Below are positions 8,420 through 12,307 of a DNA stretch of 53,314 bases, one piece after another. The stretch's first letter is position 1; each line of letters begins with the position of its first letter. Both the position numbers and the translations under genes were made by a program. The notes under the pieces are model-generated. The model was not told where the DNA came from. It made no database searches and saw only the letters and a list, made by a program, of their open reading frames with translations. Source of the stretch: Eledone cirrhosa (Eukaryota); NCBI GenBank assembly GCA_964016885.1, contig CAXHJY010001398.1, positions 1 to 53,314 of the forward strand. The letters are read 5' to 3'.

Positions 8420-11400
8420 ATATATATATATATATATATATATATATATATATATATATATATATATTATATATATATGTGCCTATAATTGTGCCTGTGT
8501 GAGGGAGTATATATATATATAATTATATATATATATATTATATATATATATATATAATATATATATATATATATATTATATATATATATATATATATATA
8601 TATATATATATATATATATATATATATATATATATATATATATATATATATATATATATATATATATATATATATATTATATATATATATATTATATTTA
8701 TATATATATATATATTATATATATATATATTATATATATAGATATATATTATATATATATATATTATATATATATATATATATTATATATATATATATTA
8801 TATATATATATATATATATATTATATATAGATATATTATATATATATATATATATTATATATATATATATATTATATATATATATATATATTATAATATA
8901 TATATATTATATATATATATATATATATTATATATATAAATATATATTATATATATATATTATATATTATAAAGAAATATTATATATTATATATATATAT
9001 TATATATTATATATATATATTATATATTATATATATATATATATATTATATATATATATATATTACATATATATATATATATATATATATTATATATATA
9101 TTATATATATATATATATATTATATATATATATTATATACATATATATTATATATATATATATATATATTATATATATATATTATATATATATATATATT
9201 ATATATATATATTATATACATATATATTATATATATATATATATATATTATATATATATATATATATTATATGTATATATATATTATATATATATCATAT
9301 ATATATATATATATATTATATATATATATATATATATTATATATATATATTATATATATATATTATATATATATATTATATATATATATTATATATATAA
9401 ATATATGTTATATATATATATTATATATATATATATATATATTATATATATATTATATATATATATATATTATATATATATATTATATATATATATATTA
9501 TATATATATATATATATATTATATATATATATATATATATTATATATATATATATATATTATATATATATATTATATATATATATTATATATATATATAT
9601 TATATATATATATATATATTATATATATATATATATATTATATATATATATATATATATTATATATATATATATTATATATATTATATATATATATATAT
9701 ATATATATATATATATATATATATATTATATATATATATGTGCCTATAATTGTGCCTGTGTGAGGGAGTATATATATATATATATTATATATATATATAT
9801 TATATATATATATATATAATATATATATATATATATTATATATATATATATATATATATATATATATATATATATATATATATATATTATATATATATAT
9901 ATTATATATATATATATATATATATTATATATATATATATTATATATATATATATATATTATATATATATATATTATATATATATATATATATATGTTAT
10001 ATATATATATATTATATATATATATATATATATATTATATATAGATATATTATATATATATATATATATTATATATTATATATATATATATATATTATAT
10101 ATTATATATATATATATATATTATATATATATATATTATATATATATATATATATATATATATATATATTATATATATATATTATATATATATATATATA
10201 TTATATATATATATATTATATATATATATATATTATATATATAAATATATATATTATATATATATATATATATATATATTATATATATATATATATATTA
10301 TATATATATATATATATATATTATATATATATATATATTATATATATATATATATATATTATATATATATATATATATATTATATATATAAATATATATT
10401 ATATATATATATTATATATTATATATATATATTATATATTATATATATATATAATATTATATATATATATATTACATATATATATATATATATTATATAT
10501 ATATATTATATATATATATATATATATTATATATATATATTATATATATATATATTATATATATATATATTATATATATATATATATATTATATATATAT
10601 ATATATATATATTATATATATATCATATATATATATATATATTATATATATATATATATATATTATATATATATATATTATATATATATATTATATATAT
10701 ATATTATATATATATATATATAATATATATATAAATATATGTATATATATATATTATATATATATATATATATTATATATATATATTATATATATATATA
10801 TATATATATTATATATATATATTATATATATATATATTATATATATATATATATATATTATATATATATATATATATATATTATATATATATATATATAT
10901 ATATATTATATATATATATTATATATATATATTATATATATATTATATATATATATATTATATATATATATATATATATTATATATATATATATATTATA
11001 TATATATATATATATTATATATATTATATATAAATATTATATATATTATATATATATATATATATATATATATATATTATATATATATATAATATATATA
11101 TTATATATATATATTATATATATATATATATTATATATATATTATATATATATATATATATTATATATATATATAATATATATATATATATATTATATAT
11201 ATATATATATATATTATATATATATATATATATATTATATATATATATATATATATATATTATATATATATATATATTATATATATATATTTATATATAT
11301 ATTATATATTATATATATATATATATATAAATACAAATAACGAAACGAAATTAAATTTCGTTTCGTTTGTAACTCACTTTTGTATGACTGACGCTTAAAC

Positions 11401-11620
11401 AATTAAGTTAAAAATGTACATCCACGTATGTATACTGAAATACTAGTATGCATAAGAATACACACACGTGTACATATGTAGATGTACCGAGTTTTCACTG
11501 GTCACTTTACTGTGAGTGTCCAGCTATTCTGTATGTAAACACACAGACAAACCGGTTTTTAGAGTCATACTGGTTCTCGAGGAAACACCTTTCCTCTATT
11601 CTCCAGAAAGCCAGACAAGG

Positions 11621-11665
11621 AATATTGGATTAGTTTCGATGTTGTTACATCTCATCAGCAATATT
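11621..11665 (-). ncRNA. Minimal type I hammerhead ribozyme (monomer copy with stem III mismatch)
   Basis: aatattg CTGATGA gatgt aaca acatc GAA ACTAAT C caatatt. Confidence 0.85.
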
Positions 11666-12085
11666 TACCTATCTTCCGGCCTTTCTGGAGAATCGTAAAA
11701 GCACATATCGTTATATGCTTTTTCTATGAAAATTAGTAGTGGGCAGACTAATTTGCATAGAGCGTGAGTACGTACCGGTTCAACGGAGACTATAAAAACA
11801 AATAACGAAACGAAATTAAATTTCGTTTCGTTTGTAACTCACTTTTGTATGACTGACGCTTAAACAATTAAGTTAAAAATGTACATCCACATATGTATAC
11901 TGAAATACTAGTATGCATATGAATACACACACGTGTACATATGTAGATGTACCGAGTTTTTCTCTGGTCACTTTACTGTGAGTGTCCAGCTATTCTGTAT
12001 GTAAACACACAGACAAACCGGTTTTAGAGTCATACTGGTTCTCGAGGAAACACCTTTCCTCTATTCTCCAGAAAGCCAGACAAGG

Positions 12086-12130
12086 AATATCGGACTAGTT
12101 TCGATGTTGTTACATCTCATCAGCAATATT
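12086..12130 (-). ncRNA. Minimal type I hammerhead ribozyme (canonical copy)
   Basis: aatattg CTGATGA gatgt aaca acatc GAA ACTAGT C cgatatt; palindromic stem III; GUC site. Confidence 0.92.
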
Positions 12131-12307
12131 TACCTATCTTCCGGCCTTTCTGGAGAATCGTAAAAGCACATATCGTTATATGCTTTTTCTATGAAAATTA
12201 GTAGTGGGAAGACTAATTTGCATAGAGCGTGAGTACGTACCGGTTCAACGGAGACGATAAAAACAAATAACGAAACGAAATTTAATATATAACGAAACGA
12301 AATTTAA

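Follow-up and report, generated by a model that had tools for sequence, protein, structure and literature searches.

A retrozyme family in the Eledone genome

How animal retrozymes get into DNA is an open question; the accounts cited below propose enzymes of Penelope-like elements (PLEs) and circular templates without showing either. The question bears on a 465-bp tandem repeat in contig CAXHJY010001398.1 of Eledone cirrhosa (assembly GCA_964016885.1), of which positions 1 to 53,314 were analysed (the window). A sequence-only reading of the window had proposed that the repeat is a retrozyme, a tandem unit with a hammerhead ribozyme (HHR), spread by PLE machinery. We find that it belongs to a real, young retrozyme family, here called family A, with one locus in the window. 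Family A is very likely a non-autonomous element driven by a PLE. It is probably a retrozyme without long terminal repeats (non-LTR) that a PLE reverse transcriptase (RT)-endonuclease copies from a circular 465-nt RNA.

The locus lies between two (TA)n arrays. Its period is 465, with ~2.06-2.1 copies and 97% matches, and the longest stop-free stretch is 57 amino acids (six frames of the trimer), which agrees with the earlier description of two head-to-tail monomers and a partial third without an open reading frame (ORF). The G+C content is 0.37. There is no LTR, the ends being fixed internal sites, and a primer-binding site and polypurine tract are absent as judged by eye only. Unit positions are counted as q1-q465 from position 11795. 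The window copy is one-armed and starts from the first of two start sites (Table 1); an inverted second arm is not recognisable at this locus. The unit sequence preceding start site 1 ends in ATA, a microhomology with the target, and start site 2 sits at a small hairpin that is conserved in a sister family. A cephalopod host had been suspected, and an RPS3A exon is indeed 100% identical to the Octopus protein, with the best named bivalve at 91%, which marks the host as an octopod.

Exact motif counts in the 3.0-Gb genome gave 2,564 matches for the HHR core of one haplotype and 4,869 for another 25-mer, with 0 for reversed controls; family A counts at least 4,869 monomers. These thousands of ORF-free tandem copies, each with one HHR, place the repeat in the retrozyme class, as proposed. 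An 88-90% subfamily of family A with a 469-nt period (L064:4209-5920, L202-L205) has the same two starts and a compensated 13-bp stem. Partial matches of 51 nt to the unit 2 query look like a search-margin effect and were not used.

Two further families were found. Family B (462 nt, 1,793 search candidates) is a sister of family A with diverged sequence, the same stem arrangement, a GUA triplet and the HHR core kept. Its starts at q1 and q56 are homologous to those of family A, and a hairpin motif common to both families has 17,392 matches. A variable internal TA hairpin occurs in family B (for example at C1:78464200-78465290). Family C (486 nt, 1,943 candidates) is unrelated and starts at q1 and q376-379. 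Its two fixed starts lie ~108 nt apart, and more diverged relatives (72-78%) are present at loci L077 and L169.

Insertions start at two fixed sites

The ends were determined at 61 loci, 47 of them from position-ordered lists for contig C1 (21 from one list and 26 picked from two more; not every listed locus) and 14 best-hit loci. Among the 47 C1 loci, 35 are two-armed with the arms head-to-head. A start at q1-4 is paired with a start at q66-75 in 31 of these 35, both abutting TA; 27 of the pairs come from BLAST, and for the other 4 the short arms were read in printed flanks. One arm starts elsewhere in the other four, and none of the 35 uses one site twice. The remaining C1 loci comprise 10 that are one-armed from either site and 2 with an unseen end. 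The two sites are ~66-75 nt apart, and we call the stretch between them the tail. The start sites are confirmed independently of the assembly, because contigs of the DNA run X1 carry the same TA loose ends, at 11791 (in 14 contigs), 11861 and 11866.

These ends differ from what had been expected of a genome-wide search, namely permuted tandem copies. Random permutation was rejected, since all loci with visible ends start at the two fixed phases. The target itself was called correctly: AT-rich, (TA)n sequence is seen in the printed flanks of the loci, the same target as that of the PLEs. Among the exceptions is a family A copy with one arm from site 2 that lies in (ATG)n (L180:3712-4273; C1:58711-59272). 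Regular microhomology at the junction of the arms could not be established in the 31 paired loci, with an overlap of ≥2 nt in 8, 0-1 nt in 9 and a gap in 14 (two doubtful rows).

The footprint of a Penelope-like element

PLEs of the Hydra clade are reported to lie in partial tandems that include a truncated copy in inverse orientation and, on one side, a tail of 30-40 bp (PMC8557442). On AT-rich DNA, a PLE protein cleaves the two strands and extends each of them, and its RT starts at two adjacent internal RNA sites, the tail being the stretch between them; a dimer is predicted (PMC11167929).

An autonomous PLE next to the retrozyme served as a positive control. A search for its end gave 1,560 candidates, and 30 loci were fetched, the window included. 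In all five loci with both ends visible, one arm carries a 76-nt tail and the other has none. A hammerhead-like core whose helix II is long occurs in the pseudo-LTR (pLTR) of this PLE (at 2745-2793, 6424-6472 and 1466-1514). The motifs RWK, DKT, CxCX5C, CxxC and CxH suggest that this PLE is of the Hydra type. The label rests on motifs because Pfam named one of four PLE-like ORFs, weakly, and a homologue search on the neighbouring ORF gave no clade name.

Judged by the layout of their ends, with an inverted arm and a tail at one end, family A insertions carry the PLE footprint. Such two-site, PLE-type ends on ORF-free units support mobilisation by a PLE, as the sequence-only reading had it. Copies had also been expected never to adjoin a PLE ORF. 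With seven PLE-like window proteins as queries, units were continuous with a PLE ORF in 0 of 68 stretches of 8-10 kb (61 loci), a sample of probably thousands of loci. The nearest PLE-like matches lie 1.4-4.6 kb from units, behind TA runs. An apparent contact in L064 (distance 0) was dismissed as an artefact of two unit clusters with a TA run between them. A helper search by BLAST and an A/B profile returned six matches outside A and B copies, all B-like fragments. Our guess, from target and neighbourhood, is that the helper is a Hydra-type PLE.

Most insertions point to a one-unit bottleneck

The cut is predicted between q299 and q298. The inner ends of the arms are spread out and avoid no position; a single one of the 62 comes within 3 nt of that point, against 0.93 expected. 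At the cut, 3 of 280 segments have an indel against a background of 0.7%, so there is no scar. Since the arms run through the cut without a scar and their ends are not piled up there, the template was not a linear monomer read once, and this candidate was rejected.

Haplotypes were compared across 71 loci and 333 segments, with 61 loci being multi-unit. Median divergence is 0.66% within an arm, 0.81% between opposite arms and 2.7% between loci. The multi-unit loci hold 50 haplotypes, and 51 of these loci are uniform at 14 diagnostic sites. Within a locus, common alleles are fixed 390 times and mixed 74 times. A private allele is present in every covering unit of 11 loci, in both arms in four of these. 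A pass on 45 loci gave the same picture. The pattern points to a bottleneck of one unit, as a monomer circle would give.

The element is present in one RNA run, although a run finder listed none that holds it. Run X6 is spliced RNA in which one contig joins the RPS3A exons over a 3,655-nt GT-AG intron, whereas run X1 spans this intron as DNA. X6 holds 28 contigs of the family A element, a count that speaks for presence only. Runs X4 and X5, from other organisms and other studies, each have one contig on window positions 11433-12256, of 495 or 496 nt. This is the unit plus 30, as a closed cycle would give, but a circle, a tandem array and contamination are indistinguishable here. In X5, other repeats of the octopus genome also turn up in trace amounts and at a similar ratio, suggestive of carry-over; none of them are seen in X4.

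A hammerhead ribozyme within a constrained fold

Each unit encodes one type I HHR on the minus strand, as had been noted, with CUGAUGA..GAAA cores at 11634-11658 and 12099-12123. Helix III is a single A-U pair closed by palindromic CUAG, and helix II is a normal 5-bp stem. The term minimal used previously does not fit, as only helix III is reduced; this is the amphibian dimer type, not the minimal PLE type. Axolotl HHR_Amex1 resembles family A in its helix III of one pair with a palindromic tetraloop cap, and it cleaves well only as a dimer (PMC7229834). The ACTAGT palindrome and GUC triplet described for copy 2 are confirmed as ACUAGU and GUC in that copy only (GAAACUAGUC, predicted cut between 12093 and 12092). 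Copy 1 reads GAAACUAAUC at this point (predicted cut between 11628 and 11627) and is likely impaired. The window dimer could therefore give a false-negative cleavage result, because helix III of copy 1 is damaged. Rfam at gathering score had no match anywhere in the window.

The cut-to-cut monomer folds at -161 kcal/mol as a linear and -156 kcal/mol as a circular RNA. On the HHR strand the corresponding z scores are -9.3 and -10.2, and on the other strand -7 (60 shuffles each). The circular fold of the minus-strand monomer, the check suggested in the sequence-only reading, is thus far beyond chance. That reading was right about strong structure and overstated its extent: 65-67% of the bases are paired (60-61% in shuffles), not nearly the whole unit.

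Most of the individual helices it listed are real. The hairpin at 11339-11367 pairs fully (11339-11352 with 11354-11367, 100%), the ~20-bp stem 11416-11435/11468-11487 is 85% paired, the aaagca and ctatg hairpins hold, and the tctgt stem is found in the family consensus. The 13-bp stem 11598-11610/11681-11693 is 100% paired here, although in 21 of 37 units it contains a U-G, so that it is perfect in some haplotypes only. Of the pairings across the unit junction, ACUCAC/GUGAGU is supported, and acgct/agcgt appears in neither the minimum free energy (MFE) nor the consensus fold. The aaccggt/actggtt hairpin is missing from both folds.

We compared 37 units, one per locus. Pairing is kept in 99.4% of cells, and 2 of 151 pairs are changed on both sides, one of them an A-U/U-A swap in helix II (31 vs 34 loci). 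The count of double changes is weak, because the sequences are close kin and the structure was drawn from their consensus. Inherited alleles break a predicted pair in 23 of 95 cases, compared with 98 of 195 for single-unit variants (p 2.5e-5). No inherited alleles fall at 11 core positions, where 2.3 were expected in a sample partly selected on the core. By these comparisons, the RNA fold is under constraint all round the unit and closes across the unit junction. The 13 private fixed alleles, with 4 A>G and 3 U>C, show no A-to-G signature of the ADAR type.

Alternative explanations

Family A could be the same PLE-driven element with a different template, namely a linear uncut multimer or cut monomers joined by template jumps, in which case no circle is needed and the HHR is slow or incidental. 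We regard this as rather unlikely. It likewise predicts scarless crossing of the cut site, and a number of observations weigh against the reading with a PLE-copied circle. The cut triplet is GUU in 45 of 66 loci and GUC in 21, and GUU is a slower-cleaving triplet. Ten of the 61 multi-unit loci are mixed at ≥1 of the 14 diagnostic sites, about half of these by a single change. About 4-5 of the 61 join two population haplotypes, a point in favour of the multimer. In two of these chimeras (C4:343061554 and C1:58934596) both arms share the haplotype of the first unit, and the units after it differ. One monomer circle cannot produce this pattern; a mixed multimer or a switch of template would be required. 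Long arrays exist (31 units, >50 units), and those above 50 units are possible sources of multimer transcripts; variants recur sub-periodically in the long arrays, so a single RT product does not account for their length. Relative to the DNA run, the element is covered ~100-fold less deeply in X6 than other repeats are, although this is a poor measure. The bias of G-U pairs toward the HHR strand is not significant (p 0.27), and no autonomous PLE with A- or B-like ends was found in 1.2 Mb (0.04% of the genome). In vitro, eight of nine Xenopus retrozyme dimers were uncleaved and one was cleaved (10.64898/2026.07.22.740005), and PLE insertion used unprocessed RNA and did not need HHR cleavage (PMC11167929). 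What speaks against the multimer is that the haplotypes seem to require passage through one unit at most transpositions: the 50 haplotypes in 61 loci are mostly fixed along both arms, and some private alleles are shared by every unit of a locus, whereas 195 singletons are confined to single units. An incidental HHR also sits poorly with the compensatory swap in helix II, with a core free of inherited changes in the partly core-selected sample and with the retention of that core in family B.

Two further explanations can be considered. The units might be tandem or inverted pLTRs, that is, short 5'-truncated insertions of an autonomous PLE outside our sample. The ends are exactly as in PLEs, Xenopus retrozymes match PLE pLTRs (10.64898/2026.07.22.740005), and our search covered 61 of probably thousands of loci with seven query proteins. 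Family A units nevertheless run into further units, up to >50, and never into an ORF; no PLE ends, whether from the window or from 1.2 Mb of sequence, resemble them, and their fold is constrained all round and closes across the unit junction. We therefore consider this origin improbable. Still less credit goes to a satellite or DNA-level mobile repeat (rolling-circle DNA or fold-back) with a vestigial hammerhead and no RNA stage, which we think very improbable. Local duplication in long arrays, the good folding of both strands and the non-significant wobble bias would fit it. Dispersal over many contigs, fixed polar ends with variable inner ends, a footprint identical to that of an RT-encoding PLE and a compensatory change inside the ribozyme would not.

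A proposed cycle

Copying from a circular RNA by a PLE enzyme, the reading we prefer, suggests the following cycle. Tandem loci would be transcribed on the HHR strand, and hammerheads acting in pairs (double HHRs) would release monomers of 465 nt. Two stems would keep the ends of each monomer together, and a ligase of the host would seal them. A PLE protein, probably a dimer, would nick each strand of a TA repeat and start synthesis from both nicks, with one active site at site 1 and the other at site 2, flanking the tail hairpin. Each active site would then copy between part of one and several turns of the template, and the two cDNAs would be joined head to head at variable points. A one-armed array, as in the window, could arise when a single side primes or survives. 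Very long arrays probably grow further by local duplication.

More tentatively, and with slightly less than even confidence, we speculate that a dimeric Penelope-type RT-endonuclease docks on one circle at the two hairpin-flanking sites, primes from the two strands of a nicked TA repeat and rolls round the circle with both active sites. If this is true, every insertion preserves a single RNA molecule in its two arms, like a fossil, and octopus genomes contain such records of target-primed rolling-circle reverse transcription in the tens of thousands. The records would locate the RT start sites at single-nucleotide resolution, and recognition of these sites would depend on their fold, not on a sequence in common with the helper.

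Other features of the window

The window carries further retroelements besides the features in Table 1. Canonical hammerheads lie in the second PLE at 13089-13113 and 18214-18238, and another fragment of an ORF is found at 20813-21745. More retroelement ORFs, judged from their translations, are located at 26243-28942, 32799-33779, 44682-47232 and 39439-42238; they comprise an inverted Hydra-like PLE, two other PLE-like RTs and an endonuclease-RT element resembling long interspersed elements (LINE-like). Short AT-rich islands with AACGATCG palindromes, direct and inverted, are present at 49110-49480, 51340-51450 and 52450-52540, inside the TA array at 48137-52458.

Table 1. Features of the retrozyme locus and its neighbours, in window positions.
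Feature	Position	Strand	Remarks
Autonomous PLE	1424..6593	+	Positive control, not part of the retrozyme; ORF 3055-5169 (704 aa); inverted arm without 76-nt tail
Left (TA)n target array	6593..11333	.	Interrupted by family C fragment at 8147-8420
Family C, truncated copy	8147-8420		Minus-strand hammerhead; helix II region ~47 nt
Retrozyme unit 1 (family A), q1-q465	11330..11794	-	RNA sense is the minus strand
Start site 1 (q1)	11330..11340	+	Fixed outer end abutting (TA)n
Tail hairpin, 13-14 bp	11339..11367, again 11804-11832	.	Between the two start sites
13-bp stem around hammerhead	11598..11693, again 12063-12158	.	Compensatory and wobble variants in the family
Type I hammerhead, copy 1	11621..11665	-	Private helix III change GAAACUAAUC breaks palindrome
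Predicted cut-to-cut RNA monomer, 465 nt	11628..12092	-	Ends held together by helix I and 13-bp stem
Retrozyme unit 2	11795..12259	-	Query of all genome searches
Start site 2 position (q66-75)	11861..11870	+	Used by opposite arm elsewhere
Type I hammerhead, copy 2	12086..12130	-	Helix I 7 bp (one G-U), CUGAUGA, helix II 5 bp, GAAA, CUAG, GUC
Third unit, truncated start (24-27 nt) plus 22-nt duplication	12260..12310	-	Variable, 5'-truncated insertion end
Right (TA)n target array	12307..12928	.	
Second PLE	12928-22889	-	Frames 16681-18030 and 15305-16705; RT and endonuclease parts in separate frames

Comparison with known systems

Hammerhead viroids and plant LTR retrozymes share with family A a small, structured HHR RNA that is predicted to circularise. 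Family A differs from them in being genome-encoded, in its type I HHR on one strand and in having no LTR, primer-binding site or polypurine tract. The label viroid-like given to the unit is not supported, as the HHR lies on one strand only, the genome has thousands of copies, and there is no sign of RNA-to-RNA replication or infectivity.

Metazoan non-LTR retrozymes are much closer (PMC7229834; 10.64898/2026.07.22.740005). They are also non-coding tandems with one type I HHR, have a G+C content below 45% (37% in family A), range from dimers to multimers, number thousands of copies and co-occur with PLEs. Reported units span 51-972 bp, with similarity to pLTRs (10.64898/2026.07.22.740005), and PLEs have been named a strong candidate helper (PMC7229834). 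At 465 nt, family A is above the 170-400 nt tested by Cervera, which makes it relatively large, as had been said, only in a weak sense, since it falls inside the reported range. The available text of both accounts describes no fixed starts, head-to-head arms or tail, and PLE mobilisation is only proposed there. Xenopus families match a PLE pLTR, whereas no such match was found for family A. Cephalopods are not mentioned in the available text of PMC7229834, and we found no report of cephalopod retrozymes or of tail-bearing retrozyme insertions in a literature that excluded most subscription journals and the supplementary tables of 10.64898/2026.07.22.740005.

Hydra-clade PLEs (PMC8557442) and Poseidon PAc (PMC11167929) share with family A the (TA)n target, partial tandems, an inverted truncated arm, a tail at one end and an HHR upstream of two internal starts. 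In contrast to these PLEs, family A has no ORF, its tail measures 66-75 nt rather than 30-40 bp (76 nt in the neighbouring PLE), both arms are usually near or above a whole unit, and the two start sites form a strict pair, each arm using one. Chlamys PLEs such as MRC1, which are putatively non-autonomous (PMC8557442), are likewise multicopy, head-to-tail and PLE-driven. They share 3' sequence with an autonomous family and mostly do not have a canonical HHR, whereas family A has an HHR and no partner was found for it.

Set against these systems, family A combines a PLE tail footprint on an ORF-free unit with a one-template signature in most loci. It offers exact start sites, a candidate helper clade in the window and a structure under selection, and the strict pairing of one site per arm bears on the PLE mechanism too. 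The class is known; what family A adds is mechanistic evidence, not a new system.

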